Origin: an uncultured Alphaproteobacteria bacterium
GTDB taxonomy: Bacteria > Pseudomonadota > Alphaproteobacteria > RF32 > CAG-239
Reading direction: 5' to 3'
DNA length: 64,000 nucleotides
NCBI GenBank assembly: GCA_944393725.1
Contig: CALYBC010000020.1
Coordinates: forward strand, 6,103-70,102
Positions 5,821 to 58,133 of this stretch are shown piece after piece; position 1 is the first letter of the stretch, and each line of letters opens with the position of its first letter. A program made the translations under genes and the position numbers. Under the pieces are notes generated by a model. The model searched no databases, was not told the origin of the DNA, and saw nothing but the letters and a program-made list of their open reading frames with translations.

Positions 5821-6792
5821 ATGGAAGAAATTATTTTTCCCAACCAAATCAGAATGTATCGCCGTTTGAGAGGCCGCTCTATGCAAGAGCTTGCCGATCA
5901 TCTTAATGTTTCATTGTCGGCCATATCCAAAATCGAAAAAGGATATCGCAGAGTCGATCAAGAGCAGTTGGTAAAAGTATCGGAATTTCTTGATTGCCCA
6001 TTACAGGATTTGTTCGTTAATGAGCAAAATTCTCAACAAGAAATCGTGTTGGCATGGAAAAGAGAACAGGAAAGACGCAACAAAATCAATGAAAAAAGCG
6101 GTCTTAAAACCTTGGGTGCCGGTTTGCGTCAAATCAGAAATGAAAAGAATCTGACTTTGATTGAAGTTGCAGAAAATGCAGATATGACTTTGTCGGTTTA
6201 TCACCGTATTGAGATGGGGCAACGAGAAGTTTCGGAAAAAGAAATGAAGAACATTGCCAAAGCATTAAAAGTCTCTGTTGATGAACTAAAAGCACAAATT
6301 AAAGATTTGGATGAAAAGGGATTCTTGGAAGAAATTATCCAGAGGAATGATGCCAAGTATAAATTGTTGTCAACACCGCGAGGCGCTATTGCTTCTTTTG
6401 TTTCTGCGACCCAAGAACTGCCTAAAATTCAGGTTTTTGGCACTGCCGGCAAAAATGGCGATCTGTTAATCAATTTTAATGAAGAAGTTAAGAGAATTGC
6501 TTCTCCATTAAATCCGCAAAGTGCTAAAGACTGCTACGCTCTCAATCTTTGCACCAGAAGATTGGGCAATCTCTTGCCTGCTCGCTCAATATTGTTCGTC
6601 AATTCGCAAGAACCGGTTAGTGTTGGCGATATTGCAGTTTATTATACAAGCGAAAATGAGGCCAAAGTAGTATCAATCAGAGAAGATGAGGACGGAAATA
6701 TGTTTGGCATGCAATGGAATCCTGATGAGAAAATAACTCTGTCCAATGACGATATGACAAAACTTCATAAGGTTATTTTTATTAGCTTGTAG
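5821..6792 (+). CDS. Tandem XRE-family HTH transcriptional regulator with a LexA/CI (S24)-like C-terminal domain
   Basis: 323 aa with two HTH units (IRMYRRLRGRSMQELADHLNVSLSAISKIEKG; LRQIRNEKNLTLIEVAENADMTLSVYHRIEMG). The C-terminal ~120 aa have an S24-like layout (IQVFGTAG, VSVGDIAVYY, KVVSI) but no obvious catalytic Ser. Divergent from the VirB6-like operon and followed by a terminator. Confidence 0.8.
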   Translation: MEEIIFPNQIRMYRRLRGRSMQELADHLNVSLSAISKIEKGYRRVDQEQLVKVSEFLDCPLQDLFVNEQNSQQEIVLAWKREQERRNKINEKSGLKTLGAGLRQIRNEKNLTLIEVAENADMTLSVYHRIEMGQREVSEKEMKNIAKALKVSVDELKAQIKDLDEKGFLEEIIQRNDAKYKLLSTPRGAIASFVSATQELPKIQVFGTAGKNGDLLINFNEEVKRIASPLNPQSAKDCYALNLCTRRLGNLLPARSILFVNSQEPVSVGDIAVYYTSENEAKVVSIREDEDGNMFGMQWNPDEKITLSNDDMTKLHKVIFISL

Positions 6793-9718: not shown

Positions 9719-12385
9719 TTAATCTTTTAGAACACTATTTTGGTATGGGTCGAAATCTTCATCCTCGGATTGCAGTAATTTTAACTTCTGTGGCGGGCTT
9801 GCGGGTAAAGTTGTATTTACATCGCTTCCTGATACTTCTTCCGGCATATAGTCATCGGAATAGTTATCATCATCTTCAACATAAACCCACTCCCAGTCTT
9901 GATCGGAGTTGTCATTACCGGCATCACTGTCTGACGGATAGGCAGCATTGTCTGGCGCATAATCATACTTCTCATCCTGAGGAACAATTTCGTCATTTTG
10001 AGAAAAGTCTTCGTTACTTGAGGCATCAAATCCCCAATCGTTGGCCTCTTCACCTTCATAATCATCAGATATTCTGATATTTGAAGTTGCCAACTCGGAA
10101 TTGCCGTCATCTTGTGTGCTAAATCCCCAATCAAAACTGCTTTCATCTGATGATTGCTCTTGGTTATTTTCATCACCAGAGATATAATATTCACTGTTGG
10201 TTTCATCCGAGGTAACTGCACCGGCGTCAGGATGAGGAACCTCTTCATCCGGTACAGTCTGCGGGTCTGTGTCGGCCGGCTCTTCCGGTTGATATGTGTA
10301 ATCATATGAAGGCGGCTCGTTTTCGGCTAGAGCTACTGTTTCTGTCGTGCCCCCGAAAGCGTCTGAATTATCAAGGTTGTTGTCCACAGAATTTTCATAT
10401 TCGTTGGGTTGAAGCTCATCATAATGATCCTGTTCGGTTGAGGCGGAAACTTCCGGTAAATCTTCGTAATCAAACTCTCCATTCGGTAACTCCAACGCCG
10501 CATCAAGAGATTGTGTTGCCTCATTATTTGCAACCTCAAAACCGGTATTGATTTCTGCGGTCGTATTTTTTTTCTTTTTCTTTTTCTTCTTTTTCTTCGT
10601 AACCGCCCCATCAGATACATTATCTGCATAGTTACCATCTTCAAAGGTATTGTCATATGTATCTTTGGAGACTGTTATATCTTGCGGCTCGTATATATTT
10701 TTTTCTACCTCGGAACTGGCGAATCTGTCACTTTGGGCAATATTGGCAGTCGTTTCTTGTTTAATCTGAGTTACCAACATCGGAGTTAGGATTTCTTTAA
10801 TTCCACGAGTAAAAGCTTCTATTAATTCTTCATTTTTGCGATTGCTTAATTTTCCAAAAATCTCTCCCTGAGCTTCAATCGCTCGGGTGATGGCTTTTTC
10901 AAGATTTTTCTCGTTTGATGCTTGCAATGATGAAATCTTGTTAATTAACTTTTCTATAGCCTCTTGGTCGCCCGAAAATGCTACAGGCGTAATGTGCTCA
11001 CCTTGGCTTGATGGCTGCGTATGATTCTCTGAAACCTTGGATATAACCGCTTTAATTAATTTTTCTTGCGAATCGTTTATCATTTTAAGCAGTTTTGCAC
11101 TATCGGCTTCTTTTGACGGTGATTGAGATGGAGAATCTGACCTGTTGTTCAGATTTTTTAACAGCTCTTCTTGTGTGGCTTTGAAGGCTTCAATGAGATT
11201 TATGTTGTCGTTTGCTTTGTTTAGCGACATTTCCTCAACCTTATCAAGGCGCAAATTTATCTGTTTCTGCCCTTCTATCACTGCCTCTATGAGTTTTTGC
11301 GTGGTAGAATCATCATACGCGGGGAGCGGAGCGGCAACCGTTCCGTCAGCAAGTTTGATTCCGCTTAGTGACTGGCCTAAACTTTTCTGACTTTGAATAA
11401 TCGCGTCGCAAAGCTCCTTTATTTCCGATGAGGTGGAACCATTATCACGACTGGATTTCAGACCCTCGGTAATCGCACTGCAAAGCTCTTTTATTTCTTT
11501 GTTTTGGTCTTCCCTTATACTCAGGTAATTATCCGATATGGTTTGCAGAAGTTCTTTTATATCTATTCCGCTTATACTTTCTCCGCCTGATGATGTAACT
11601 ACAGGTGTTTTATCAGCAATTACCTTGCATAATTCCTTAAATTCCTGCTGATGCTCGTTGTAACCTTCTTTGATGTTTTTTGCAATGTATAATTGTGTTT
11701 TGCTTATGTCCTGAACAAGCTTATCTAAACTCTCTTTTTGGAGTTGGCTTTGGTACTGCATGAGCGGGTGCAGGCTTTTGGCAAAGTCAGAGGCAAAATT
11801 CTCGCCTAAACTTATATTAACTTTTCCCGCTCCGATTGATGATGCTCCACCGGCAGCATTGTTTCCAAGTTCTTTTATTATCTTCTCCAGACTTTCTCTC
11901 TGAGTTGCAGCTTGCTGCTGCAGAAGCCCGGCGATGATTCTGGTAAATTCCGTAGAAAAATCTTTATCAAAACTTATTTTACCACTTACTGCGGTAACCG
12001 GCTGTGCTGATGATGAAGGAGGAACAGCTCCGAAGGCCGTTGCTTGAGTTGTTGTGTCAAAAACAGGCGATGGAGATGACGGTGTGTCTACGGCTTCTTC
12101 GCTTCCTTTATTGCCGCTCAGTTCGTCTATATAGTCTTGTAACATGGCTCCGCCTGGCAAAGTTGAGAATATACTCTTTACATCTGGCGACAGCTCAAGT
12201 AGCATCTTATTGAAGGCTTCGCGGCGTTCTCCGCTTAGTATGTGCATTTGGCGATAAATGTTTAGAAACCTTTGTGCAACGACAACAGGATCCTCGTCGC
12301 CTTTACGCAACGCCTTTCTTCTTGCCTCCGTCGTTCTGTTGGTTTCTGCTACCATTCTTGCACAATTACCTTTCGCAATATACAC
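9719..12385 (-). CDS. 888-aa cytoplasmic-type hyper-acidic protein, function unknown (occupies the position after virB11 where virD4 often sits)
   Basis: No TM or signal peptide. Basic N-terminus, internal repeats (FKELCKVIADK, IKELCSAITEG, IKELCDAIIQS), a run of 10-11 Lys, then ~300 aa of D/E/N/S/Y-rich sequence with FDWGF, NDWGFD and DWEWVY motifs. No Walker motifs, so it is not VirD4. Confidence 0.7.
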   Translation of the reverse strand: MYIAKGNCARMVAETNRTTEARRKALRKGDEDPVVVAQRFLNIYRQMHILSGERREAFNKMLLELSPDVKSIFSTLPGGAMLQDYIDELSGNKGSEEAVDTPSSPSPVFDTTTQATAFGAVPPSSSAQPVTAVSGKISFDKDFSTEFTRIIAGLLQQQAATQRESLEKIIKELGNNAAGGASSIGAGKVNISLGENFASDFAKSLHPLMQYQSQLQKESLDKLVQDISKTQLYIAKNIKEGYNEHQQEFKELCKVIADKTPVVTSSGGESISGIDIKELLQTISDNYLSIREDQNKEIKELCSAITEGLKSSRDNGSTSSEIKELCDAIIQSQKSLGQSLSGIKLADGTVAAPLPAYDDSTTQKLIEAVIEGQKQINLRLDKVEEMSLNKANDNINLIEAFKATQEELLKNLNNRSDSPSQSPSKEADSAKLLKMINDSQEKLIKAVISKVSENHTQPSSQGEHITPVAFSGDQEAIEKLINKISSLQASNEKNLEKAITRAIEAQGEIFGKLSNRKNEELIEAFTRGIKEILTPMLVTQIKQETTANIAQSDRFASSEVEKNIYEPQDITVSKDTYDNTFEDGNYADNVSDGAVTKKKKKKKKKKNTTAEINTGFEVANNEATQSLDAALELPNGEFDYEDLPEVSASTEQDHYDELQPNEYENSVDNNLDNSDAFGGTTETVALAENEPPSYDYTYQPEEPADTDPQTVPDEEVPHPDAGAVTSDETNSEYYISGDENNQEQSSDESSFDWGFSTQDDGNSELATSNIRISDDYEGEEANDWGFDASSNEDFSQNDEIVPQDEKYDYAPDNAAYPSDSDAGNDNSDQDWEWVYVEDDDNYSDDYMPEEVSGSDVNTTLPASPPQKLKLLQSEDEDFDPYQNSVLKD

Positions 12386-12470: not shown

Positions 12471-13439
12471 TTAAGTAATTTCCGTAACCGCTCGAAGGTT
12501 ACCATCACGATTTATTTGTATAACGCGTAATTTGTGACGCATTTCTTCAATGGTCTTATTGCGATCAATTGTCGGATAGGTATGTAAAATTCTGTCGGTA
12601 AATGCTTGATATGCAGCCTCTGAACTTTCGGCGTGAATAGTTGCCAAACAGTTATCATGCCCTGACCCCATAAGCTCCCATATTGCTCCGGCATTGCTTG
12701 TTGATATCTCTCCGCCGATGATGGCATCGGGAGTAAAACGAACCACTAAGTCAATTACTTTGGCATATGTCAATGCGTTGGTTTGCTCGGTTCTTGATAA
12801 AGTTATATGTACTCTGTTTTTGTGCGGTACTATTAATTCTCGCGTATCTTCAATGGTTAAAATTCGCTTGTTGATGTCCAATATCTTCAATAAATTGTTT
12901 AAAAATGTTGTCTTACCGGTTGCCGTCGCACCGGAAACTAATATGTGGTCTCCACGACGGATACTCAGTAATAATCTCTCATAAGGGTCTTCCGGTTCTT
13001 TAATATCTTTGAGCGGATTTATTTTGTGCAGGTGACCGCCTTGCGTTAAACCATAATCGCCCAAGCCAAAAGAAACATCATCAGAGTGAATACGGATTGT
13101 TAAAGCTATGCCTCCGGTTAAATCATTATTGTCATACATGACGTTCTTGCCGCAAATTGCCGAAAAACGGTGTTCGCCGGGTATGGTGGCATAAACAACC
13201 GGGTTTCCCTGTATGGGGTCAAACGGCAATTCATAGGTGTTGGCTATAATGTATAATAAGTCGGTTAAGTATTCTTTACTTAATTTCTCATCTTTGTAGC
13301 TTGTCCAGGGATGGGCCCGTTTTCCGCGTAATCTTAACCATACCTCTCCGGCATGATTGATGGCAAGTTCTTCTATGCCATCTTGCTCATACCAATAAGA
13401 CAGCGGTCGTAAAATAGATTCCAAAACAGTAAAACTCAT
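12471..13439 (-). CDS. virB11: VirB11-family T4SS traffic ATPase
   Basis: 322 aa. Walker A GATATGKTT, Asp box ILTIEDTRELIV, Walker B RFTPDAIIGGEI, His box GHDNCLATIHAES. Confidence 0.92.
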   Translation of the reverse strand: MSFTVLESILRPLSYWYEQDGIEELAINHAGEVWLRLRGKRAHPWTSYKDEKLSKEYLTDLLYIIANTYELPFDPIQGNPVVYATIPGEHRFSAICGKNVMYDNNDLTGGIALTIRIHSDDVSFGLGDYGLTQGGHLHKINPLKDIKEPEDPYERLLLSIRRGDHILVSGATATGKTTFLNNLLKILDINKRILTIEDTRELIVPHKNRVHITLSRTEQTNALTYAKVIDLVVRFTPDAIIGGEISTSNAGAIWELMGSGHDNCLATIHAESSEAAYQAFTDRILHTYPTIDRNKTIEEMRHKLRVIQINRDGNLRAVTEIT

Positions 13440-13451
13440 TACTAAACTCCT

Positions 13452-16400
13452 CTAAAACAGTGCCGGAACACTACCGCTTTCTCCCGTATCGGCCGTGCTG
13501 CCTGCCGGCGTTTGCGGTGTGGTCGCTATATTCCCCGACGAACTCGGCGGCGGAGGCGGAACCAGCGTCTTATTTTTCTTGGGGGCATCATCTATCAACA
13601 GGGGTTGTGTATCAGCGGCAGCCGCTTCGACATTGGCCTCGTCCGGATCATACACAACCTGTGTACTTGAAGCTTTGGCAACATCCTCGCGTTGTTTCTG
13701 ACGGCTCTCTTGGTCAGTCTTAACATCGTCGATTAAGATTTCTGGCTTTTGATACTTTTGTGATTCTTCTTCGTCGCGCTCTACGCTTCTTAGCCATAAA
13801 TCAGTGTTCGGATAAACAATTATACGCGTTCCGGCCGGAATATAGGTCATTGCTTTTACATCTGTCTTATCGGCCAATATGTCATCAAACAATTCTTCCA
13901 TATCGTCCAAGAAATTCTGACGAGCGTCGTTGGCTGCCTGTTGTTTTGAGGTTTCAATTTCCCCTGCGGCGTCATCAGCAGAGGCAATAAAATATGATGC
14001 TCCCGAAGATAAAACCGTGGTTACTACCGGTAAGGTATATTTCTTGAAGAGTTGCTGGTCAACATAACCTAGAGCTCCTGCTCTACCTTGAGCATCCGCA
14101 GTTTGGCCGCTAAACACAAAGATGGAGCCGTCGGGTCTGATTAATCTTTCCCAACTGATTTGAACTCGGGCAGATTCCGAGGTTGCCTCAGCCGCCGCAG
14201 TTATGCTACCGAAACTTCCTATCATACGCGAACCGGCCGGAATTATTATGTTGCGGCCTTCTTCCGCATATACATTCCTCTCGACATAGGCAGTGATAGG
14301 AGCTGGATTGTTGGTATCTATCGCACGCGCGATTACGGCAGGAATCGGCTTATCGGAGAATATCATTTCGCTCATATCAACTCTCCATGAAGAAATCGAC
14401 TTCGGTATACCTTGCTCGGACCAATCTTTTTGGTAGCCGTCAAAAGCCTCTTTGCGAACACTTGAACCGATGTGCCCAACACTGATGTTTTGTCTTCTCT
14501 CTTGCATTGCCGCTTCAAGTGCTGCTCTGCGGGTCGGGTCGTATCTTTCGCCGGGGCCATAACCTCCACCGGGGCCTAAGTTGGCAGCACTACCTTCACC
14601 GACGCCGTAAGCTCCTCCGGGACCAAAGCTGCCGGCAGGAACAAATACTTTTCCGTCATCTTCTTTATCGCCAAAGTCTTCGGTACCTATCAGATTGCCC
14701 TCACTGTCTATTATTAAGCCGTCAGGTGTACGATATCCAATTATATTCCCTTTATCGTCAATAACCGTATCATTTTCCAAAATCTCACCAAGATACTCGC
14801 CGTCAGGGGTTAGAGCGATACCTAAAGATTTGTAATATTTGGGGTCTTCCAGCATTTTTAGTGCCGGTGATACATCTTCTTCTTGGGGCTGTTTTAGAGA
14901 ATCCAATATCGAAGTCTTATCAAACCAACTTCGTGTTTCGTCTTTTTCTGCGTCGGCCTTAGCTTTGGCTGCCGCTTCTGCTTCGGCCTTAGCTCTGGCC
15001 TCAGCCTCTGCCTTAGCTTTAGCCGCCGCCTCTGCTTCATCCACCGGAACCAATAGTTTATCTTTGTTAAAGTCATAATACTGTAATGGTCTTGCTTTAA
15101 CTATAAACTCGCCATTGTCTTTTACAATACTGCCACCGGAATTTATACTGCCTATAACATTGCCCAGATTGTCATAAACCTTACCATCTAAAGATAATTT
15201 TCCAAGAACCAAATTGGTATTGTCTCTGATATTGTAATCACGATTACCGCGACCAACTACTTGCTCCCCTTTTATAACAAAACCTAAATCATATTTGCCT
15301 AAGCTTTGGTTGTTGAAACCAAAAGCTTCGCCATTGCGGTTGACCAAACCTATAACTTGTCCGGAATTATCATAAATGTATAGATCATAGAGAGCATAAC
15401 CGATATTTTTTTCATCAGAAACAACATAGCCGTCGTAATTCACATCACCCAAAATCTCGCCTGTTGCCGATATTACCTTCCCTTGTGATGACACTCTGCC
15501 GATATATTTGTTAGACATATCAAAAGCAACCTTATACTTAAACAAATTTCCCAGAGGCAGACCGGCATTGGAATTAACATTATCATTGGGTTGCAGATAT
15601 CCTATGAGTTCATCATCATCATCGACTATTAAACCGTTTACCGTTGTGTATCCGATTATATTGCCGGCAAAGTCAATAACCGAATTAAACTCAACAGCCT
15701 TTCCGATTAGGGCTTTATTTTCGTTATATAGCTGTTTATTGTAGTCCAAACAGCCAACCTGACTACCAGTTTCATTATAAACTTTGCCGTCATTTGAAAC
15801 AAACCCTATGGTGCGACCATTAAAATCAACAACAGGCGATTGAGCTACTTTATAGCCGACCACAGCACCGCTGTCGCTGATAACAAAATCATTAGCCAAC
15901 AATTTGCCGACATATACATCTCTGTAGTTGTAAACATTTCCGTTAAAGGAAACAACGCCTATGGTTTCGCATTTGTCATTAACGGCTACACCTTGAGAAG
16001 ATAAATATCCGTTGACAATTCCGTTGTTGTCAGTACTGAGCATTCCTTCAACGACTTTACCTATTTTTGAGCCTGAGGAGTTTTTTACATTGCCGGCTAT
16101 GTCGGTGTACCCGATAAAATTACCGTTAAAGTCTAAAACCGTACCGCCATTATATGCAAAACCAATCTTGGGCATATAATTAAAATTACCTGATTGGGAT
16201 TTAGCTACGCTTGTATCCGGTAAGATTTTTCCAATATCGCTGAAAGAACGATCCAAAATGTTATTGTGATAGCTTATATTACCAAGAGTATTTCCATCAT
16301 TGTCAACAGCAACATAGTCCTTTATCTCTGAGGCAATTAGTTGGTTTTGCGGATTTAGCACATAGCCCGAGCCGACAATTTTACCGAGTTCAGCACCTTT

Positions 16401-17798
16401 GGAACTATAGGCTTTACCATCAAAGCCCAAATAAGACGAGATACTACCAAATGGTGTGTAAAAAGCCTTGGAAACGAGAGCTTGTCCGACCAAATTTCCG
16501 TCTGCGGAAAAGACATAACCTTGCGGCGAAACCGCAAGTGAGCTTTCTTTGCTCTTTATTTGGGAAGAGATTCCGCTAACGCCCAAAAATTTTCCGTCTG
16601 CCGAATATACCATTTGCGGAGAGCTAACAGCACCTATCATGCGGCCGGACAGATTATAGGCCTGGTTTCCGACCATATAACCTATAGAAGTGCCGCTTAG
16701 TGCAATAACACCGCCATTACTTAGGGCGTGCCCCACTAAAGCCCCTTTAAAATCAAATACCGGCCCGGTGGATATAATCTTACCCACAATTGCTCCAGAA
16801 CCGTCAGTTACGACACCTCTGGCTGCAATCAAGCCGCTGAACTTATCTCCTCTGGCGATATTGCCTTGCGGTAATAAACGACCAAGATATCTGCCGTTAA
16901 GATCGGTTGCCGTGGCAGAAAAACTTTCCGAACGACCACTTATATTGCCTTTAGCATCGATAATATATCCATCAGCGCGTATTTTACCTACCGACTTGTT
17001 ATCATCTATAATATCGCCGTTATAGCTAACGAAACCTAAATAAAAACCTTTGTCATCAAAAGCGTAGCCGCTGTTTACAATCCGACCGATAACCGCCCCG
17101 TCATTATTGTAAACAAAGCCATTGGCTCGTAAATGACCGATAACCACGGAATTAAAATCTGTAACCTCACCTCCGGGAACAACACTGCCAATGAAATCGC
17201 CGTTTAAGGATATTACCATGCGCGATGATATCAAACGCCCATCAAGTAAATAGTCATTACCGACTTTGCGATAAGCATAGCCGTCCGGAGTAACAATACC
17301 AATTTGCTGTCCGCTTAAATTTGCATACAAACCATCACCGGTAATGCGACCTGATATTTTTCCTTCGTCATTATAAACAAGGCCTGGAAACACAACTTGT
17401 CCTAAAATGTCAAAATATTCGTTAACCACCAAACCATTAGGTAGTGTTTTGCCCACAACTTGCCCCGAAGAACTCCTTACCGTCCCGTCGCTATTTACTT
17501 TACCCAAGAATCTGGCGTCATTTCCTATGGCTACGCCTTGCGGGACGACGCCGCCGATAATCTGCCCGTCGGAATCGAGAATAAGACTGTCTGCGGTTAT
17601 ATTGCCCAAAAGTTTGTTATCTAAACTTACAACCTTGCCGTCGGGAATTACTTTTCCTAAAACGGTGCCGTTAAAATCAATCGCCGTTATTTCTTGAGAA
17701 AACGCAGGACAAGCACAAACAATGACAGACAAAACAACTGCCGTAAAATTTATGAATAAATTATGTAGCTTCCTTATTTGCAATAATCTCATATTCAA
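13452..17798 (-). CDS. virB10: VirB10/TrbI-family protein with about 900 aa of beta-hairpin repeats and a TolA-like Ala/Lys/Glu helix between the membrane anchor and the barrel, plus a ~110-aa C-terminal tail
   Basis: 1448 aa with N-terminal anchor FINFTAVVLSVIVCACPAFS. Residues ~40-905 are 17-22-aa units (e.g. DFNGTVLGKVIPDGKVV, DSDGQIIGGVVPQGVAI). Next comes AEAAAKAKAEAEARAKAEAEAAAKAKADAE. The TrbI/VirB10 core (about 13760-14420) has the motifs IPAVIARAIDTNNPAPITAYVERNVY, IIIPAGSRMIGSFGS, RVQISWERLIRPDGS, DAQGRAGALGYVDQQL and IPAGTRIIVYPNTDL. The tail contains PPPPP. Confidence 0.9.
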   Translation of the reverse strand: MNMRLLQIRKLHNLFINFTAVVLSVIVCACPAFSQEITAIDFNGTVLGKVIPDGKVVSLDNKLLGNITADSLILDSDGQIIGGVVPQGVAIGNDARFLGKVNSDGTVRSSSGQVVGKTLPNGLVVNEYFDILGQVVFPGLVYNDEGKISGRITGDGLYANLSGQQIGIVTPDGYAYRKVGNDYLLDGRLISSRMVISLNGDFIGSVVPGGEVTDFNSVVIGHLRANGFVYNNDGAVIGRIVNSGYAFDDKGFYLGFVSYNGDIIDDNKSVGKIRADGYIIDAKGNISGRSESFSATATDLNGRYLGRLLPQGNIARGDKFSGLIAARGVVTDGSGAIVGKIISTGPVFDFKGALVGHALSNGGVIALSGTSIGYMVGNQAYNLSGRMIGAVSSPQMVYSADGKFLGVSGISSQIKSKESSLAVSPQGYVFSADGNLVGQALVSKAFYTPFGSISSYLGFDGKAYSSKGAELGKIVGSGYVLNPQNQLIASEIKDYVAVDNDGNTLGNISYHNNILDRSFSDIGKILPDTSVAKSQSGNFNYMPKIGFAYNGGTVLDFNGNFIGYTDIAGNVKNSSGSKIGKVVEGMLSTDNNGIVNGYLSSQGVAVNDKCETIGVVSFNGNVYNYRDVYVGKLLANDFVISDSGAVVGYKVAQSPVVDFNGRTIGFVSNDGKVYNETGSQVGCLDYNKQLYNENKALIGKAVEFNSVIDFAGNIIGYTTVNGLIVDDDDELIGYLQPNDNVNSNAGLPLGNLFKYKVAFDMSNKYIGRVSSQGKVISATGEILGDVNYDGYVVSDEKNIGYALYDLYIYDNSGQVIGLVNRNGEAFGFNNQSLGKYDLGFVIKGEQVVGRGNRDYNIRDNTNLVLGKLSLDGKVYDNLGNVIGSINSGGSIVKDNGEFIVKARPLQYYDFNKDKLLVPVDEAEAAAKAKAEAEARAKAEAEAAAKAKADAEKDETRSWFDKTSILDSLKQPQEEDVSPALKMLEDPKYYKSLGIALTPDGEYLGEILENDTVIDDKGNIIGYRTPDGLIIDSEGNLIGTEDFGDKEDDGKVFVPAGSFGPGGAYGVGEGSAANLGPGGGYGPGERYDPTRRAALEAAMQERRQNISVGHIGSSVRKEAFDGYQKDWSEQGIPKSISSWRVDMSEMIFSDKPIPAVIARAIDTNNPAPITAYVERNVYAEEGRNIIIPAGSRMIGSFGSITAAAEATSESARVQISWERLIRPDGSIFVFSGQTADAQGRAGALGYVDQQLFKKYTLPVVTTVLSSGASYFIASADDAAGEIETSKQQAANDARQNFLDDMEELFDDILADKTDVKAMTYIPAGTRIIVYPNTDLWLRSVERDEEESQKYQKPEILIDDVKTDQESRQKQREDVAKASSTQVVYDPDEANVEAAAADTQPLLIDDAPKKNKTLVPPPPPSSSGNIATTPQTPAGSTADTGESGSVPALF

Positions 17799-20700
17799 TT
17801 CCTCTGGTTTTTGGCGACCTCGCCTAAAACATATCCGGAAACATTTTTATCCAAATCTATAAATGAGCCGTTGCTCTTTATATAGCCAATATTTTCGCCA
17901 TTATTGTCAATAACTGTGCCATCATAAGATAACCGCCCTTTATATTTGCCGTCGTTGCCCAGTATTGTGGCTCCTATTTTATAAATTTTTCCCAATATCC
18001 TATCGTTCAAATCAATAGCCAATCCTCCGGACAGCATTCTGCCGATTATACTAGCATCTTTGCCGGTAATTGTGCCATCAAAATTTACATAACCCACAAC
18101 TTTATCATCATTGGATATTACTATGTCGCCACTTACTACCTCGCCGATAATTTTTCCGGATACTCCGATAATATTGTTGTCAGATAAAACTTTTCCTAAC
18201 GAAACACCGGCAAAATCAGTTACAGCACCGTCGGGAGACACCGATCCGATTACATTACCGCCAAAATCAACTGCAAACCCCGGATGTAGTATGTGGAGAT
18301 TTTTATCTGTTCCACCACCTGGCAGAATGGCCGTCACAATTTTCCCCGAGGGATCCAATACATCACCGAGCGAGTTAAGATATCCTTTATAATTTCCGAG
18401 GGCATCAATCATTATCCCTTCGGGTATTACTTCGCCGATGACTTCGCCGTCTTGGTTAACGACTTTTTTGTCGTGCGTTACCTGTGCCACATTTTTTCCA
18501 TCTAAACTTATTACCTTACCATCAGAAACAGCATAACCAATATATGAACCATCATAACCTATTGCGGCACCTTTTCTGATTAAACCGCCCTGATATTCGC
18601 CTTTCATATTAAAAAATTCGCCTTTGGCATTAAGCTTACCTAAGGTGTCGCCATAGCGGCTAAAGACTGTTCCGTCGTCGACTGAAGTTCCGACAACATT
18701 ACCCTTGGTATCAATAACTTCTCCTTGGAGCAATCTGGCGCCGTTTATATTGTTATATCGGCTCAAACCATTATTTTTTATGCTCCCTTGGGCAACTCCT
18801 TTGTTGTCATATATTTGCCCATCGGGAAACAATCGCCCGATAAGATTACCGCCGGAACTCGCAACAGAAGTTTTAGCAGGTACCGCAACGCCCAATATTT
18901 TGCCGCCTTCACCCAAAACAAAATTACCTGCCGTTAATCGTGCAGAGGGTTTGCCATATATGCGGACTTGCGCCTTATCATCAACACGGTTTATATATTC
19001 ACCTGAGGGCGTATAAGCGTAGCTTTCTCCTAATACGCGCCCTATATATACTCCCTTGGAATTAAATACATCGCCTAAGACCCCGACACAACCGACAGGA
19101 AGCTTGGCATCATTTATTACCATGTTGTCCATGCCTACTTTGCCAATATACCTGCCGTCTAAATCAACAGCTGCTCCTTGCTTGCCTACAGCCCCAATAA
19201 ATTCGCCGCGTTCGTTGAGTACACTGCCATCGGGATTTACACAGCCGACATAGCGATTGTTTAAGTCCTTGACTATGCCGGAATTATCAACCGTACCAAG
19301 CAAATTACAATTATTATCAAATACTCGACCGTTTTTTAGAGTTTCTCCGATGTAACGCCCCTCTGAACTCAAAACCACTCCCTCCGGAGTTATTTTATAA
19401 TTGGTTTCTTCATTGCCTTTTTTTATCTTGCCGTCTTTGTCCAAATACCCAATTTGATTGCATCCGTAGCCTATTATCATACCGGCTCGAACCATTTTAG
19501 CAACGACCTTGGCCCCATTGGGATCTTTGACTAAACCATTGGGCAACGCTCTGCCGACAATTTGGTCTTTATCGTTTTTGATACTGCCGTCATTTTGCAG
19601 TGTGCCCAACAAATTACCCTGCGGAGTTATGGCTATTTTATCAAACATAACCAACTGTCCTAACACATTGGTCGCCGAATCAAAAACTATTTCCTCTCCG
19701 GCATAGCCGATAACTTCACCGTCGAGATTTACTATCGTTCCGTCAGGAAGCATTTTGCCAATAACATTGCCATTGGCATCCAGAAGATTTCCGTTTTCAT
19801 CAACATATCCAATTATATTGCCGTTGGCGTCATAAGCAACGCGAACTTTTTTACCATCAAGAGGCGAAGATTTCTTTATTATGTTGCCGTTGGCATCAAC
19901 ATAGCCAACAATATTCCCGTTCGCGTCAACAACCGTACCGTCGGGTAAAACAACGCCTAATACATTGCCGTTTTCATCTAAGGCCACGCGTCCGGGCTGC
20001 GTAACTCTGCCTATAACCTTGCCATTGAGATCGACCACCGTACCGTCGGGCATAACACGGCCGATTACATTGCCGTTTTCATCAACAACCGTACCATCGG
20101 GTAGTACACGACCGATTACATTGCCGTTTTCATCATAGACATAGCCGGTTTCAACCGCCCGGCCGATGACTTTACCATCTTTGTCAACAACCGTGCCGTC
20201 GGGCAATACACGACCGATTACATTACCGTCTAAATCAACAACCGAGCCATCAGGATTGACATAACCGATTAAATTGCCAAACTCATCATATACGGCTCGC
20301 CGATTTTCTGCCACGCCGATTACATTACCGTCTTTGTCAACTATCAGGCCGTCGGGCCCAACTTTTCCGATTATATTGCCGTTAGCATCTCTTACAAAGC
20401 CGTCTTCGTCTATAACACCTATAATCTTACCATCCGGTCCTATGGCATAGCGAACACCTTTGGTATTTTTATCTGATGTTGTCGTGCCACCGGGAGCTGT
20501 TTCGCAATATGTACAGTCTTCTTTGGTAACAGCATTGCCCGTTACCGGAACTTTAGCAGCCTTAATACTTGAATTACCTAAATTTACTTCGTGCCAGGAA
20601 ACAATGAAATTGTTTTGCACATTGCCGGCGACCACCGGAACCCAACTCATCGTAATGTGGCAGGTCTTGTCGCCTTCCAATGTCATGCCGGTACAACGGT

Positions 20701-21100
20701 CGGTAAAAGTGAAGCCGGCGGCCGGCGGATCGGCTAATGATACAGAATCTATCTTGATTGCGGCTTTGCCGTTTGTACCCAGTGTCAAAACATTTTTTGC
20801 TTCGGTACCGAGTACAACCTCTCCTATCGGAACCGGATCGGGGGTGGTAGTAAGAGGTATCTCCCCTTCGATTGTGGAAAATTCTATGCTTTGCGTGGGC
20901 GTGGTAGTAGGAATTGCACCAAACACATCGGCGTTATCCGTAAATACCGGCTCTTCATATGTATCTATACTATCTCCGCTGTTTAGTAAGAGTAACAAAC
21001 CAAAAATAAATATCAGCAAAGAGGCAATACCAATCATCAAAATTATGGTATTGGTTTTTTTGACATATTTTTCGGAATGTGTTAACGGCTCTTTGCTCAT
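17795..21100 (-). CDS. 1101-aa membrane-anchored protein: Ig-like beta-sandwich domain plus about 880 aa of the same beta-hairpin repeat family as VirB10
   Basis: TM IILMIGIASLLIFIFGLLLLL. The segment PIGEVVLGTEAKNVLTLGTNGKAAIKIDSVSLADPPAAGFTFTDRCTGMTLEGDKTCHITMSWVPVVAGNVQNNFIVSW looks like a PapD/ASH/DUF1573-type sandwich. This is followed by repeats such as PDGTVVDKDGKVIGRAV, YDENGNVIGRVL and PDGTVVDENGNVIGRVM. Its stop overlaps the virB10 start by 4 nt. Confidence 0.8.
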   Translation of the reverse strand: MSKEPLTHSEKYVKKTNTIILMIGIASLLIFIFGLLLLLNSGDSIDTYEEPVFTDNADVFGAIPTTTPTQSIEFSTIEGEIPLTTTPDPVPIGEVVLGTEAKNVLTLGTNGKAAIKIDSVSLADPPAAGFTFTDRCTGMTLEGDKTCHITMSWVPVVAGNVQNNFIVSWHEVNLGNSSIKAAKVPVTGNAVTKEDCTYCETAPGGTTTSDKNTKGVRYAIGPDGKIIGVIDEDGFVRDANGNIIGKVGPDGLIVDKDGNVIGVAENRRAVYDEFGNLIGYVNPDGSVVDLDGNVIGRVLPDGTVVDKDGKVIGRAVETGYVYDENGNVIGRVLPDGTVVDENGNVIGRVMPDGTVVDLNGKVIGRVTQPGRVALDENGNVLGVVLPDGTVVDANGNIVGYVDANGNIIKKSSPLDGKKVRVAYDANGNIIGYVDENGNLLDANGNVIGKMLPDGTIVNLDGEVIGYAGEEIVFDSATNVLGQLVMFDKIAITPQGNLLGTLQNDGSIKNDKDQIVGRALPNGLVKDPNGAKVVAKMVRAGMIIGYGCNQIGYLDKDGKIKKGNEETNYKITPEGVVLSSEGRYIGETLKNGRVFDNNCNLLGTVDNSGIVKDLNNRYVGCVNPDGSVLNERGEFIGAVGKQGAAVDLDGRYIGKVGMDNMVINDAKLPVGCVGVLGDVFNSKGVYIGRVLGESYAYTPSGEYINRVDDKAQVRIYGKPSARLTAGNFVLGEGGKILGVAVPAKTSVASSGGNLIGRLFPDGQIYDNKGVAQGSIKNNGLSRYNNINGARLLQGEVIDTKGNVVGTSVDDGTVFSRYGDTLGKLNAKGEFFNMKGEYQGGLIRKGAAIGYDGSYIGYAVSDGKVISLDGKNVAQVTHDKKVVNQDGEVIGEVIPEGIMIDALGNYKGYLNSLGDVLDPSGKIVTAILPGGGTDKNLHILHPGFAVDFGGNVIGSVSPDGAVTDFAGVSLGKVLSDNNIIGVSGKIIGEVVSGDIVISNDDKVVGYVNFDGTITGKDASIIGRMLSGGLAIDLNDRILGKIYKIGATILGNDGKYKGRLSYDGTVIDNNGENIGYIKSNGSFIDLDKNVSGYVLGEVAKNQRN
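19927..20236. repeat. Near-identical 51-nt coding repeats inside the 1101-aa gene
   Basis: Units of the type AACAACCGTACC(G/A)TCGGG(T/C)A...ACACG(A/G)CCGATTACATTGCCGTTTTCATC occur at about 19927, 20033, 20084 and 20186. Confidence 0.8.
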
Positions 21101-21107
21101 ATGTACC

Positions 21108-22682
21108 TTATTGCGTCCTTACCACACTGCAGAACACTCCGTTGCGACCCAATTCGCCGCATATTTTATCGCCGGCATTTAAGTCTTTTACCGGACCTAC
21201 ACGAAGATGAAACAGTTCTTTACCTTGGCCGTCCGCCGGAGCATCAACCGAGAAAAACGGAGAGAATCCTCCTAAAATATCGCTATACTGCGAGGACAAC
21301 TTATCCCATAGCGTTTCAAGCTCATTTACATTAGAGTTAGCACCAAGCTCAATTGAAATATTTGAGTTGTCGCCTGAAACTATTCCCGTACCGTAAGTGT
21401 AATTTGGCTGAGGAACGGTAGATGTACCGGTGTTGCTTATTCTCTGCATCTTTGAGTAATCAAAATTATCGGCGACATTGGCGACATTCATACCGTTTTG
21501 ACCGCTTCTGGTATATTCCGGCACAATAATCTGGCTCTGTCCGGCTTGAATATCCATTTGTCCTCCGACTTGGAGCGGCGTGGCGTTGGCTTTGGCATTA
21601 TATCCCATAGTTTGCTGATTGGGAATAGCCGGTGCAACCTCCCATTGCGGCGGCAAGTAGTCTGCAGAATCGATAGCGTATTCCAGACCGCTTTCATCGG
21701 AGCGGCGCATCTTTATGCAAATAAGTCTTTTGCCGTTACGCAAGACCATGTCTCCGATACCCTCGACGATAATCAGTCTGTTGTCCGGCCCTTTGGTTCT
21801 GAAGCCGACCGGAACTTCGACTCTCTCGACAATCATACTGACAACCGGTCTTTGGGTCATATTCAAAGCTTTTTTACCTAAATCAATATAAGTAAAGATA
21901 TTGTCGCGCCATACTCTTTCGGGGGCTATAACGACATCATCGGGATTGGGAACATAAACCTCCAAATCAAATCTGAAGTCGCTGGGGTCGACAGGAATAC
22001 TTTTTATCCAATCGCTGTTTTGATTTCTTCTGGTGTAGGTCGAGGCAAGAGATTTTCCTCCCGATGACGACAAACCGCCGTTGGTAGCTCCGGCAACACC
22101 ACCTGACGGTAAGTTACCGCTTGGGCCGTTACCCTGACCATCAACAACCTCAATATCAATTATTGCGTTCGTAAGTCTTTCGGTATTAACGGCTTCGGAC
22201 TTCACATAAAAAACATATCGATTTCCGGAACGGCCGAAAACAATTATGTTGGTATCAACACCAACATTAGAACCTTTGCGAGGATATAGCAAAAGTGTGG
22301 ATGGGCCGGATATTTGCCCGTCAAATGTTGCACTGTCTCCAATAAATATATCTTCAATCAACTCCCACGAGGGGAAGTTAATCATAGTAATCATTCCCTC
22401 GCGAACTCTTATCGGTAAGACCAAATCCGGTGTCCAATAATATTTGGAATAGGCCGGCTTGCTCTGTCCCTCGCCTAAGTTCTGCAAAGGATCAAGCCAG
22501 GCTGCCTGCGTCATGCCGAGAGAATTGAAGCCGGCGTAGTTAAGATTCATCGGCGTGTAATTACCTTGAGCCTGCTCGGCACTGGCATCCATCATCTGCT
22601 GGTCAACCTGAGATTTGGCCTCAAAAGAAACCATCATCGCCAATACTAATAACAAAAATTTTATCTTTATATTTTTCGACAC
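21108..22682 (-). CDS. virB9: VirB9/CagX/TrbG-family protein with a C-terminal SPOR-like peptidoglycan-binding domain
   Basis: 524 aa with a signal peptide. VirB9 N-domain: YYWTPDLVLPIRVREGMITMINFPSWELIEDIFIGDSATF ... IIVFGRSGNRYVFYVKS. VirB9 C-domain: RVWRDNIFTYIDLG ... LIIVEGIGDMVLRNGKRLICIKM. The last ~85 aa, ISIELGANSNVNELETLWDKL ... FHLRVGPVKDLNAGDKICGELGRNGVFCSVV, fit the SPOR pattern. Confidence 0.88.
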   Translation of the reverse strand: MSKNIKIKFLLLVLAMMVSFEAKSQVDQQMMDASAEQAQGNYTPMNLNYAGFNSLGMTQAAWLDPLQNLGEGQSKPAYSKYYWTPDLVLPIRVREGMITMINFPSWELIEDIFIGDSATFDGQISGPSTLLLYPRKGSNVGVDTNIIVFGRSGNRYVFYVKSEAVNTERLTNAIIDIEVVDGQGNGPSGNLPSGGVAGATNGGLSSSGGKSLASTYTRRNQNSDWIKSIPVDPSDFRFDLEVYVPNPDDVVIAPERVWRDNIFTYIDLGKKALNMTQRPVVSMIVERVEVPVGFRTKGPDNRLIIVEGIGDMVLRNGKRLICIKMRRSDESGLEYAIDSADYLPPQWEVAPAIPNQQTMGYNAKANATPLQVGGQMDIQAGQSQIIVPEYTRSGQNGMNVANVADNFDYSKMQRISNTGTSTVPQPNYTYGTGIVSGDNSNISIELGANSNVNELETLWDKLSSQYSDILGGFSPFFSVDAPADGQGKELFHLRVGPVKDLNAGDKICGELGRNGVFCSVVRTQ

Positions 22683-24504: not shown

Positions 24505-27500
24505 TTACCAATAATTTGCACAGTAGGGTTCGGTAGGATCATTATAATCATCCTCTTGTGCTTTTAAACTATTTTCATACTTATCTACAGCGGCACTATC
24601 GGCTTCGGCTTTTTTTATTTCGGAATTAATGTCGTCGATATCTGCCGTAACCGATGATACCTTCATAACATAATTTTTATCTTGTTCCATTACATATATC
24701 AAGGTATTTAAATCACCTATTTTTTCTTTTACCGGTTCATTATCCGTTGTATCCGTGGCCGATATTACTGCCTGTGCTGAGGATATTTTTTGTTTTTCTA
24801 TGTCTTTTAGCTTATTGACTGCAAGATTATAATCACTTTCGTTTCTTAGATCAAAATCTTCGGTGGGAGAAAATCCATATTCTTCAAGAGAAGCAACTAA
24901 ATCTTCCATATCTTTTTCATATCTTTGTTGGTATTCTTCCAAATTTTCTTTCTGTAGTTTTTCATTCTCGACATGGCGCAAAAAATCTCCGATCTGATTA
25001 CGAGAAATAGAGGCATGATTGCCCAGAGATATTTTATTTTTTTTGGCATCAGTCAGCTTGGTACTGTCCTCATTTGCCAACATGTCGGAATAAGTGTTAT
25101 ACAATCGTTTTCTTATTTTAAGATTATTTTTCTTATCGGCTTCCAATATCATACCAAGTTCACTATATTCACAGCCGGGTTTCTCTACACCGCTGGTATT
25201 TAAACCTAAATCGACTTTGGAATCGTACATGCTATGGTATAACTTACCGTTTTTGACTTTTACAAGTATACAACGCGGTAGTGAGCCTTTGGCTAAATCT
25301 TTACGAGCACGGTAATTGCCGCTGGTATTGATATCTAATACTTCGCTATAACCATCGACCACGCAGGGCATTATACCTCCGCGGGAAAAGGCTTCGTTAT
25401 AACAACCTATATCCAGAGCTTCTTTGAGATTAAAGTCGCTTTCAATAAAGGCATTTTGCTTTAACATATCCTGCCAAATTTGCGGAACTTCACCGCCATA
25501 GTTTAAGAATTCTGAAGCAGTAATACTTCTTTTTTCAAGACCTTTACCTGTCGGTTTGATTCCGCCAAAATCCGTACTGTCAAAGTGAAAAACCTCTCTG
25601 ACGGGCGGCAACGAATAGTCGGGAATTGCATACGGAGCTTTCATGTCCCTGGCCTTGGGCGCTGCTCCGACAAAAAATCCTTCGCTCTCGGTTCCGCTGT
25701 CTGTTGCCAATAATTTGGCATAAACAGCAACATTGTTGATTTCGACAACTCCGGAAAGACTGTAGGCTAAAGTTAGAGCCTTAAGCTTTGATATCATCTC
25801 GTTGTGTATGGCTACAATTTTGGAATGTGAGGACGGTAAGTACAGACTATCTCCCATTGCCATAATCCGATTATAGCTTTCATCTACGATAATATCTACC
25901 TGTTTGTACAACGCATTTAGTGAACGATTAGCGGCTGTCTCTGCCGAAAGCATGGTAAATACCACATCTATGGCCGGGTTATCTTCGGCTTTTTCTTTTA
26001 GAATTGCCCTTAAATTCTTTTTTACATCTTTGGCATAGTCTTCCGAACTGGCTGTGGCAGCCGTTGCAACATCTGCCTTAATCTTATCTGCCGCATCGGC
26101 TTTTTTATCCATACTATTGGCGGCACTTTCTTGCATCGCCAGCTTGGCTTCGGCTATCTTATCATCCAAAGATGCTAATTCCGTCTCGTATTTTGATAGT
26201 ATTTTTTTGTTGGATGATATACTGTTGTTTAGAGTTTTGATTCTGCTGTCATTGGTATTGGCTGATATGTTGGACTGAGCTACTTCACTCAAGGCATCAA
26301 CACCGATTATTTTTTCGTTATCGGCAGGAATTACCGTCGAATCGACATCAGGGTATACTACCTTGGCATTTACGGTACTATCCAGATCTTGAAGAGCATT
26401 ATCTTGTGCCACCGACCTCATGTCGGCAACTTCATCGCTGGCTGAAGAAATTTTACCGTTAACATCATCCATCTTGGCAATCAGCTCTTCGCGTTGTTTT
26501 TCCAGAGAATCAAGACTTGACTTCATTGAACCACTGTATTGCGATAAGGCGGCCGAACTATCTTGCTGATTTTGCAAAATCTTGGCAGCAGCCTCTTTTT
26601 GGATGTTGCGTAGATTTTGTTGATATTTAGTATCGGAAATATCCTGATTTTTACCTTGCAAACGAGATACAACTATGGCCAAAACATCATTTTTGGTGTA
26701 TTGTTTTAAGTACTCTTTTATATTTTCGTACTTGCGTTTCAGGTATTGACCATAGAAGCTTTTAGTATCGGTCCATATCATTTTATTATTATTGGGATTT
26801 CCCCATTTTTTGGGCTCTTGTGCTAACATTTTGGCCGCTTCGGCACCAATCTGCCATGACATCATATCACTTTTTCGACCTTCGTCTTGCGAGGTTTCTT
26901 GTTGGCTTTTGTTTATAGATACATCTATATTTTGTCCGGCTTCTTCAGATTTTTGCATGTCCGGATCATCGGATAATGCCTCCAATTCTTCGCTGTCTAA
27001 AGATATTTGCGCAACATCTTCGGCCTCAACCGTAGTGGTTTCGGCAGCCTTTGCCGTTTCATATGCATCTATCGCCCATGCAGATATTCCTTTGCGTAAA
27101 TCGTGGCGATTTACATTTTCTCCTAGTGAAACACCCGACCATACGGTTACCGGATTACTAAAGTAGTGTGAAAGGTATTTAATGGCACATTGCTCAGAGC
27201 TTTTTAACCTTTGAAGGCTTTCATTATAGTCATCTTGCATTTTTATAAGCTCTTCTGCCGTTTTGCGATATTCTTTTATCTGCTTAATCATATTGTGAGC
27301 ATTCATCGCCGTGGTAACATCGGTTTCGGCCGAGCTTAGGCTGTCAAGTGCGGCTAGTTTATCTTCGGCAGCGACTAAAGGATGTTCGTTATCGGCTTCG
27401 GCCGGAGATACAAATTCAACCGTCTGCTTTACCAATCTTATAGACTCATCATTTTGCATTACGGCAGCGGCTTCAATATCCGACAGACTGCCGGAAACCG

Positions 27501-53745: not shown

Positions 53746-53767
53746 CTTCTTTGCAGGAGATAAAAAA

Positions 53768-56417: not shown

Positions 56418-56444
56418 CTTTAATTTAATTGGTTAAGGTGGAAA

Positions 56445-58118: not shown

Positions 58119-58133
58119 TTTGAGGGCGATAAA

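Follow-up and report, generated by a model that had tools for sequence, protein, structure and literature searches.

The gene cluster described here, for a type IV secretion system (T4SS), lies on the minus strand of a 64,000-nucleotide (nt) stretch (hereafter the window) of contig CALYBC010000020.1 (assembly GCA_944393725.1) from an uncultured alphaproteobacterium. It is a VirB-type cluster with, in order, a VirB2-like pilin (41689-42378), an 1853-amino acid (aa) open reading frame (ORF), a VirB4 (33210-35639), several unknown ORFs, a 1277-aa ORF, two VirB8 genes and, at the end of concern here, VirB9-SPOR, a 1101-aa partner ORF, VirB10 and VirB11. The VirB10 ORF is 1448 aa long as listed and had been described in an earlier note, made from the DNA letters alone, as a VirB10 with a large block of novel beta-hairpin repeats and a TolA-like helix between its membrane anchor and its barrel. 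In the window ORF list it starts at a TTG that overlaps the stop codon of the upstream ORF (17795-21100), but the true start is probably the ATG at 17792, two codons further on and 2 nt past the TGA of the upstream gene, due to the presence of an AGAGG upstream and the agreement with the starts of orthologues. The features of the VirB10 ORF and its immediate neighbors, all on the minus strand, are as follows.

13452..17798, minus: virB10 ORF, 1448 aa by the first TTG, candidate C-terminal piece of a split giant VirB10.
17694..17792, minus: predicted cleavable Sec signal peptide (aa 3-35, ending ...CPAFS before QE), from the -3/-1 rule on orthologue N-termini.
15093..17693, minus: array of 51 x 17-aa beta-hairpins (aa 36-902) of the Pfam beta-flower/DUF3659 class, from hidden Markov models (HMMs), autocorrelation and AlphaFold2 (AF2).
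14928..15092, minus: PLQYY boundary motif and hypervariable zone (aa 903-957), from the orthologue alignment.
~14943-15044, minus: Ala/Glu/Lys helix (aa 919-952) inside the hypervariable zone, from sequence and a low-confidence AF2 model.
14838..14927, minus: conserved connector (aa 958-987; W958, SPALK.LE..KY.KSLGIAL), from the orthologue alignment.
14685..14837, minus: three extra hairpin units (aa 988-1038), from the 17-aa register and the unit HMM; predicted local distance difference test (pLDDT) >90.
14538..14645, minus: family-invariant Gly-rich motif FVPAGsFGPGGAYGvG...NLGPGGGYGPGERYDP (aa 1052-1087), from the orthologue alignment.
13779..14537, minus: VirB10 C-terminal domain (aa 1088-1340), an N-terminal helix and the TrbI barrel (Pfam, aa 1146-1336), from Pfam, the PDB sequence search and NCBIfam.
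13455..13778, minus: C-terminal tail (aa 1341-1448) with an acidic segment, VVYD, PPPPP, a Ser/Thr-rich stretch and [SG][IV]P[AQ]LF, from the orthologue alignment.
17795..21100, minus: upstream partner ORF, 1101 aa, candidate N-terminal piece of the split VirB10, from Pfam/NCBIfam and alignments.
21108..22682, minus: VirB9/CagX homologue that ends in a SPOR domain and is expected to pair with the VirB10 barrel, from Pfam and synteny.
12471..13439, minus: VirB11-type ATPase directly downstream of VirB10, from Pfam and synteny.

The assignment of the C-terminal region to VirB10, as the earlier note had proposed, is well supported. The TrbI/VirB10 domain (PF03743) was matched at aa 1146-1336 with an E-value of 1.6e-34, NCBIfam VirB10/ComB10 models matched below their curated/equivalog cut-offs (VirB10, 8.9e-28), and a sequence search of the PDB recovered ComB10 (2bhv, 4.9e-18) along with CagY (8cb2, 2.8e-6), TrwE, TraF and VirB10 chains, with all matches confined to aa 1142-1344 and none in the repeats. 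The ORF also occupies the expected slot between virB9 and virB11. The ComB10 alignment passes through aa 1266-1310, the putative antenna region of the barrel, and two long helices predicted by AF2 at ~aa 1248-1310 (pLDDT of only 33-64) would be a putative antenna pair. An AF2 model of aa 900-1448 had a pLDDT of 50 and a predicted template modelling score (pTM) of 0.27 and was confident only for three C-terminal hairpins. The remaining elements named in the earlier note around the barrel were recovered, namely a few further repeats (aa 988-1038), a Gly-rich stretch (aa 1052-1087) and a tail of ~110 aa with PPPPP (aa 1341-1448). The Gly-rich segment is kept almost residue for residue among orthologues, suggestive of a motif rather than a floppy linker. 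The tail is likewise conserved, ending in a sequence, [SG][IV]P[AQ]LF (aa 1443-1448, nt 13455-13472), that is invariant amongst orthologues with the two-gene arrangement, and the terminal Phe is also retained by the single-chain relatives described below (..DRMF, ..PRLF, ..FGFF). The C-terminal Phe recalls an outer-membrane beta-barrel signal or a PDZ ligand. The only proline run of the ORF is in this tail, and hairpin arrays stand where a Pro-rich linker would be expected.

The array that replaces the linker has a strict period. Across aa 36-905 the autocorrelation of Gly positions reaches 0.425 at a lag of 17, with further peaks at lags 34 and 51; among 2000 shuffled sequences, the highest value at any lag from 5 to 39 was 0.152. 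The 17-aa register is unbroken from aa 36 to ~902, corresponding to 51 units, and three more units occur at aa 988-1038; an HMM of the unit gave 47 positive hits with a spacing of mostly 17 aa. The earlier estimate of about 50 hairpin units in place of the Pro-rich linker thus holds, and the motif proposed for them is close to the consensus determined here (DGxVVDxDGxVIGxVxP), but the proposed unit length of 17-22 aa is replaced by a strict 17 aa. Nor is the repeat type novel, as had been thought: the 5-fold beta-flower family PF21785 matches with 200.6 bits (5.2e-60, ten stretches; cut-off, 38), the 4-fold beta-flower family PF21784 with 40.3 bits (cut-off, 25), both members of Pfam clan CL0395, and DUF3659 is matched as well. 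In the only paper found on the class, the beta-flower was described computationally from the AlphaFold database in 2023, without a known function, and a semi-conserved [DNEQ]xxG motif at the hairpin tip was defined for it (Durairaj et al. 2023, PMC10584680). This motif is present at positions 6-9 of the unit consensus (D/N-x-D/N/S-G). By HMM score and tip motif the repeats are assigned to the beta-flower/DUF3659 class, and they appear YD-like. Within the VirB10 ORF there was no match to the RHS model at E<=0.01 (Pfam), which some orthologues do carry (PF05593), nor to CW_binding, LysM, SPOR or OmpA-like domains (Pfam, NCBIfam). No link between the beta-flower class (PF21785/DUF3659) and VirB10 was found in the searched literature, so there is no sign that the family was already established as a VirB10 insert, a possibility the earlier note had raised against its own interpretation.

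The symmetry that defines the beta-flower class is not seen in the sequence periodicity of the array. Profile-profile similarity between units peaks instead at lags of 3, 6, 9, 12 and 15 units, and the corresponding mod-3 statistic (z ~7) was reached by none of 2000 permutations; z-values for the other unit periods were -0.46 (mod-4), -0.14 (mod-5) and 3.5 (mod-6). By sequence, the array can be described as 17 three-hairpin modules. Ten separate 5-fold flowers in a row, which the name of the Pfam family might imply, are rejected on sequence, as the periodicity is 3 units and a 5-unit signal is lacking. The size of the array is nearly constant, with a distance from the EITAI sequence at its start to the PLQYY motif at its end of 867-871 aa in ~45 species and a single exception of 812 aa, and an alignment of the array from 65 orthologues (46-88% identity) contained two insert columns and no deletions. 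Compared across genomes, as suggested in the earlier note, the repeat number is fixed rather than variable. Conservation is highest at the mature N-terminus of the array (0.78-0.85, compared to 0.53-0.65 mid-array). There are no DNA-level tandem repeats in the VirB10 array, the only ones in the gene being 24-30-nt repeats in the helix segment, which suggests an old, fixed structure, unlike the recombining repeats of cagY.

Using AF2 with 65 aligned orthologues, it was possible to model aa 36-1000 with a mean pLDDT of 87.8 and a pTM of 0.83. The predicted array consists of ~102 short strands (4-6 residues each) with turns of 4 residues between them (pLDDT ~90), without a low-confidence linker up to ~aa 905, beyond which the helix is of low confidence. 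The ordered beta body that the earlier note offered as one of its options is favored by this model over a flexible linker, and the array is inferred to be one rigid all-beta body. When the model was compared to the PDB with Foldseek, the best hits were the YD shells of Rhs proteins, teneurin and Tc toxins (E 1e-17 to 1e-10), with TM-scores of 0.05-0.09 and, against Rhs shells of 80-100 Å, a root-mean-square deviation (rmsd) of ~29 Å over ~1000 aligned columns. Every chain among the best 50 had a TM-score of <=0.15; none of these was a global fold match and none was a solenoid or CROP chain. A global match to an Rhs-type shell, or to any listed PDB fold, is ruled out, as the similarity is local only; the modelled hairpin sheet appears locally YD-like, with no solved counterpart of its overall fold among the listed PDB chains.

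The N-terminus of the VirB10 ORF is probably not a membrane anchor. Amongst 89 distinct orthologue N-termini the pattern is a short basic stretch, an uncharged run (median, 15 aa) and AxA followed by QE, with Ala (80) or Ser (7) at position -1 and Ala (57) or Val (21) at position -3, and the -3/-1 signal-peptidase rule holds in all 89. The invariant sequence QEITAIxFxG starts directly past the predicted cleavage site. The hydrophobic segment thus looks like, and probably is, a cleavable Sec signal peptide rather than an anchor, cleavage being judged by the -3/-1 rule. The placement of the array between anchor and barrel in the earlier note has to be revised accordingly, with the anchor assigned to the upstream ORF.

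This partner ORF (17795-21100), translationally coupled to VirB10, begins with a conserved cytoplasmic motif, LTHSEKYVKKTN. A transmembrane (TM) helix of 22 aa follows (aa 18-39, nt 20984-21049), and further on are an Ig-like domain (weak match, ASH/choice-of-anchor-D), a DCxxC motif and an array of its own of ~51 hairpins (aa 219-1090, nt 17831-20446). Beta-flower models match the partner at 9.7e-62, and the RHS/YD models PF05593 (3.9e-20) and TIGR01643 (8e-18) match as well (Pfam, NCBIfam). The partner repeats (aa 219-1081) are colinear with aa 39-892 of VirB10 (26% identity, E 5e-62) and share the 3-unit superperiod (z 4.2). Its N-terminus is conserved across 35 species and its C-terminal end is also among its best-conserved parts; together with the conservation peak at the mature N-terminus of the VirB10 array, this fits an interface at the split point. 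The partner gene has tandem periods of 51 nt and 153 nt at 19926-20357 (66-76% identity), the only stretch of either array with residual DNA repeats and an independent line of support for a 3-unit duplication module.

A library-wide search with the VirB10 C-terminal domain (aa 1085-1448) returned this family, ordinary VirB10s (380-630 aa), intermediates of 1235-1498 aa, and a clade of proteins of 2085-2406 aa that end in this domain; beta-flower arrays and TrbI were present together in all five of those scanned. One single-chain form of 2287 aa (P0148) has the same N-terminal elements as the partner, from the cytoplasmic motif (LSSSEQYVKNSN) and TM helix to the Ig-like domain and DCxxC. It aligns along its N-terminal part to the partner (partner aa 6-1090 to P0148 aa 7-1032, 3e-105) and along its C-terminal part to VirB10 (aa 38-1338 to P0148 aa 901-2171, 5e-111). 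In a locus of the single-chain clade (L081), the gene order is VirB8-VirB8-VirB9-VirB10-VirB11, with a 2213-aa VirB10 and without a separate partner. At least 120 clusters of single-chain forms (2063-2609 aa) occur in uncultured Alphaproteobacteria under the NCBI names 'hypothetical protein', 'TrbI/VirB10 family protein' and 'DUF3659 domain-containing protein'. Measured between the outermost positive hits of the unit HMM, which gives a lower bound, their arrays span ~97-101 unit lengths in four of six forms and ~72 and 83 in the other two (P0339 and P0319), for comparison with 51+51+3 units in the window.

As the single-chain orthologues are colinear with partner plus VirB10 and stand alone in the slot, the window appears from these alignments to carry a two-gene version of a giant VirB10, with an anchored N-terminal piece upstream and a C-terminal piece that has its own predicted signal peptide. 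Fission of a single gene is the simpler reading compared to fusion, as the single-chain form retains the canonical VirB10 topology. The earlier note had held that finding the repeat block and the VirB10 core on separate ORFs would count against it; core and array are within one ORF in all 80 species-level loci, and what does lie on a separate ORF is the anchor and half of the presumed ancestral array.

The only hypervariable zone of the family lies between PLQYY and W958, and the distance from PLQYY to the Gly-rich motif ranges from 122 to 381 aa among orthologues. In most orthologues the zone is filled by 2-12 canonical units (DENGNxIGxxDxxGNxVD), in the window and its nearest relatives by the Ala/Glu/Lys helix alone, and in one other subgroup by the helix plus units, a distribution that marks the 'TolA-like' helix as a lineage-specific filler. 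The helix had been placed essentially correctly in the earlier note (14948-15040, compared to ~14943-15044 here) and its likeness to TolA domain II is one of composition only; homology is rejected, the segment being low-complexity with low pLDDT and without a match to any TolA family model (Pfam, NCBIfam).

The architecture recurs in many gut Alphaproteobacteria. There were more than 120 clusters of 1448-1711-aa proteins with the beta-flower plus TrbI architecture, and 971 of 8000 scored candidates had E<1e-5, named 'hypothetical protein [Alphaproteobacteria bacterium]' and in one case 'YD repeat-containing protein'. Scanning one genome per GTDB species yielded 193 relatives (at least 193 species), nearly all of them metagenome-assembled genomes (MAGs) of uncultured Alphaproteobacteria (e.g., 'Proteobacteria bacterium CAG:495') sampled in the gut or rumen of human, mouse, deer, rabbit and ruminants, which we take to belong to the GTDB order RF32. 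The order VirB6-like/VirB8/VirB8/VirB9-SPOR/partner/VirB10/VirB11 is retained in ~70 of 80 loci. Many relatives are on contigs of hundreds of kilobases, indicating that the system is chromosomal, and the system as a whole is classified from its genes as a chromosomal P-type (VirB-like) T4SS of uncultured gut Alphaproteobacteria. No description of RF32 type IV secretion or of a giant split VirB10 architecture was found in the searched literature.

Collectively, we consider it reasonably probable that the VirB10 ORF encodes the Sec-exported, outer-membrane-proximal piece of a split giant VirB10 whose arrays dock to build a periplasmic ring or cage. The C-terminal piece would be exported by Sec with cleavage of its signal peptide, and its barrel would join VirB9-SPOR in the outer-membrane core ring. 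The hairpin array would fold into one rigid, probably compact, all-beta body that docks non-covalently on the array of the anchored partner, re-creating the bridge of VirB10 from the inner to the outer membrane. Many copies (a dozen or more, assumed from other T4SSs) could then assemble, in the periplasm, into a very large ordered ring or cage that surrounds the channel, with ~100 hairpins per VirB10 equivalent and a role analogous to the periplasmic rings of Cag and Dot/Icm. The hypervariable zone, here the Ala/Glu/Lys helix, may act as an adjustable hinge between array and barrel. A compact closed body is favored over a rod because the pTM is high despite 10% disordered residues, because of the rmsd of ~29 Å against shells of 80-100 Å, and because strict invariance of unit number is typical of closed repeat folds. 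That the protein is part of a naturally split VirB10, two polypeptides held by array docking alone that in a dozen or more copies form a new type of giant closed periplasmic cage, in a T4SS kept throughout an order of gut Alphaproteobacteria, is put forward tentatively, as the less probable of these two statements.

Several points weigh against the docked, split VirB10. The partner can be as short as 1056 aa or as long as 1842 aa, depending on the species, such that the two arrays are not always matched, and the compactness of the array is inferred from indirect signs in a predicted model and is at best probable. An uncleaved signal anchor on VirB10 would mean two inner-membrane-anchored chains. 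The C-terminal domain has a low-quality AF2 model (pLDDT 50), the copy number per machine is carried over by analogy from other T4SSs, and every carrier organism is an uncultured MAG.

The closest competitor, which we regard as unlikely, is an extended rigid spacer or molecular ruler, in which the 51 hairpins would form a long open solenoid rod of tens of nanometres that fixes a distance or spans a thick envelope. The strictly invariant array length and the lack of internal linkers in the AF2 model are what such a rod would predict, and the 3-hairpin superperiod recalls the three-units-per-turn hairpin solenoids of choline-binding and clostridial toxin repeat domains. However, a pTM of 0.83 over 965 residues, 10% of them disordered, would be hard to reconcile with a rod of 300-400 Å, and the Foldseek results (rmsd ~29 Å against compact Rhs shells; no solenoid or CROP chain among the best 50) point the same way. 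Further, no periplasm is known that comes near the width needed for two such arrays end to end, and open solenoids usually tolerate changes in unit number.

Binding to peptidoglycan or another envelope polymer, in the manner of the cell-wall-binding hairpin repeats of Gram-positive surface proteins, would be in keeping with the SPOR peptidoglycan-binding domain of the neighboring VirB9, through which the machine engages the sacculus. We consider such a module improbable, as the VirB10 ORF has no match to CW_binding, LysM, SPOR or OmpA-like domains, ~100 hairpins per subunit are far above what an anchor needs, and the fixed number of units is left unexplained. A surface-exposed, variable region for host interaction or immune evasion has a precedent in CagY, a VirB10 homologue with large repeat regions and a homologous C-terminal domain, and the carriers are host-associated gut bacteria; yet the array lacks DNA-level repeats, its unit number is invariant, its sequence is well conserved and variation is confined to the short zone at aa 903-957. 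In every solved VirB10 the region N-terminal to the barrel is on the periplasmic side, and a surface-exposed array is accorded very little weight. An Rhs/YD-type encapsulation shell caging a cargo or toxin at the secretion channel is just as hard to defend: shells of the Rhs, teneurin and Tc-toxin type lead the Foldseek hits and RHS/YD models match the partner and some orthologues, but the TM-scores are those of a local resemblance, the strands (4-6 aa) are much shorter than shell strands, and Pfam detected neither an Rhs core or plug nor an aspartyl-protease or toxin domain. An assembly artefact, in which a frameshift or stop would have interrupted a single giant gene, can draw on the existence of single-chain orthologues but is effectively refuted, with a negligible chance of being correct: the two-ORF arrangement and the conserved signal peptide recur in all 80 species-level loci, which come from independent assemblies.

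Compared to canonical VirB10/TrbI/ComB10 proteins (A. tumefaciens VirB10, pKM101 TraF, R388 TrwE, and H. pylori ComB10), the window protein shares the homologous C-terminal barrel, the virB9-virB11 slot and, presumably, the role in the outer-membrane core ring. Whereas canonical members are single chains of 380-630 aa with a TM anchor at the N-terminus followed by a Pro-rich linker, the window has ~54 hairpins as linker, a predicted signal peptide, the anchor on a separate gene with ~51 more hairpins, and an extra conserved 110-aa tail ending in Phe. CagY of the H. pylori Cag T4SS is likewise a VirB10 homologue of giant size whose barrel is preceded by large repeat regions. Its repeats, mostly alpha-helical, come from DNA direct repeats that recombine, and the protein is a single chain, in contrast to the beta-hairpins, fixed unit number and two-piece protein of the window; recombining repeats of the CagY kind are rejected, as the array has no DNA repeats and an invariant number of units. 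DotG/IcmE of the Legionella Dot/Icm system, a machine with large extra periplasmic rings, also has a VirB10-like C-terminal domain after a long block of short tandem repeats, but these are pentapeptides in an I-type system, whereas the window system is P-type and its repeats are beta-flower/YD-like with a period of 17 aa and no pentapeptide Pfam match. The likeness to CagY and DotG is thus a loose one, a VirB10 with a giant repeat region, with differences in repeat type, fixed number and the split.

The repeat class itself is found here in an unusual form. Described beta-flowers are single small barrels of ~100 aa with 4-, 5- or 6-fold symmetry (8, 10 or 12 strands; PMC10584680), whereas the VirB10 ORF has 51 contiguous hairpins with a 3-unit superperiod in one predicted 870-aa body fused to a secretion core protein. 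The Rhs/YD shells of T6SS Rhs proteins, Tc toxin BC and teneurin share the long meander of ~17-20-aa beta-hairpin repeats, but there is no global fold match (TM 0.05-0.09) and the window protein has shorter strands and neither an Rhs core nor a toxin.

Several other genes in and around the cluster are of note. The VirB9/CagX (21108-22682) is unusual in having a C-terminal SPOR (peptidoglycan-binding) domain, and tblastn, scored for the gene only, placed a VirB9 gene here in 72 of 80 loci. An 1853-aa ORF inside the cluster (36087-41648, minus) and the 1277-aa ORF (24505-28338, minus) lack Pfam and NCBIfam matches; the latter, which keeps its place in 69 of 80 loci, may encode a VirB6-like protein with an extension. 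TrbL/VirB6-like genes also occur beyond the main operon (1807-3111 and 47478-49520, both minus), and these extra copies and the duplicated VirB8 recall what we take to be similar gene duplications in the rvh system of Rickettsiales. Directly downstream of VirB11, an 888-aa ORF (9719-12385, minus) is very acidic and low-complexity with a run of 11 Lys and no family match; it is poorly conserved, being detected in 42 of 80 loci (24-83% identity), and could be an effector or accessory factor. No VirD4-type coupling protein or relaxase was identified among the ORFs scanned for families. A double HTH_3 (Xre-type) regulator (5821-6792, plus) is divergent at the distal end of the T4SS region and may regulate the cluster. 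A type IVb-pilus/R64 thin-pilus-like cluster with a secretin, a PilO-family accessory protein, a T2SSE ATPase and a T2SSF platform protein lies beside the T4SS (52120-59270, plus). The T4SS cluster is flanked by housekeeping genes (43085-47477), namely those for a ROK kinase, LuxS, an MTA/SAH-nucleosidase-like phosphorylase and a Xer-type tyrosine recombinase, which fits a chromosomal location. In the single-chain locus L081, two adjacent genes (25063-26642) encode mTERF domains, a mainly eukaryotic organellar family that is unusual in bacteria.

The VirB10 family and the beta-flower repeat class were known already; new here, as far as sequence and predicted structure indicate, are a VirB10 that is split in nature and an insert of such size and rigidity. 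A whole gut lineage (at least 193 species-level genomes) appears to have swapped the short VirB10 linker for ~100 beta-hairpins, which would constitute a third, structurally distinct type of giant VirB10 beside CagY and DotG. The beta-flower/DUF3659 class, without a known function, would for the first time be placed clearly in a cellular setting, as a structural element of secretion machinery, and the findings point to an uncharacterised conserved T4SS in common uncultured bacteria of human and animal guts. Current T4SS models have only VirB10 crossing both membranes in one chain and passing the energy state of the inner-membrane ATPases on to the gate in the outer membrane. The two-piece VirB10 of one clade, with a predicted signal peptide on the distal piece, would be a natural experiment on the need for covalent continuity in this subunit and, if the split is true and the machine active, signalling from the inner-membrane ATPases to the outer-membrane gate would proceed without a continuous VirB10 chain.

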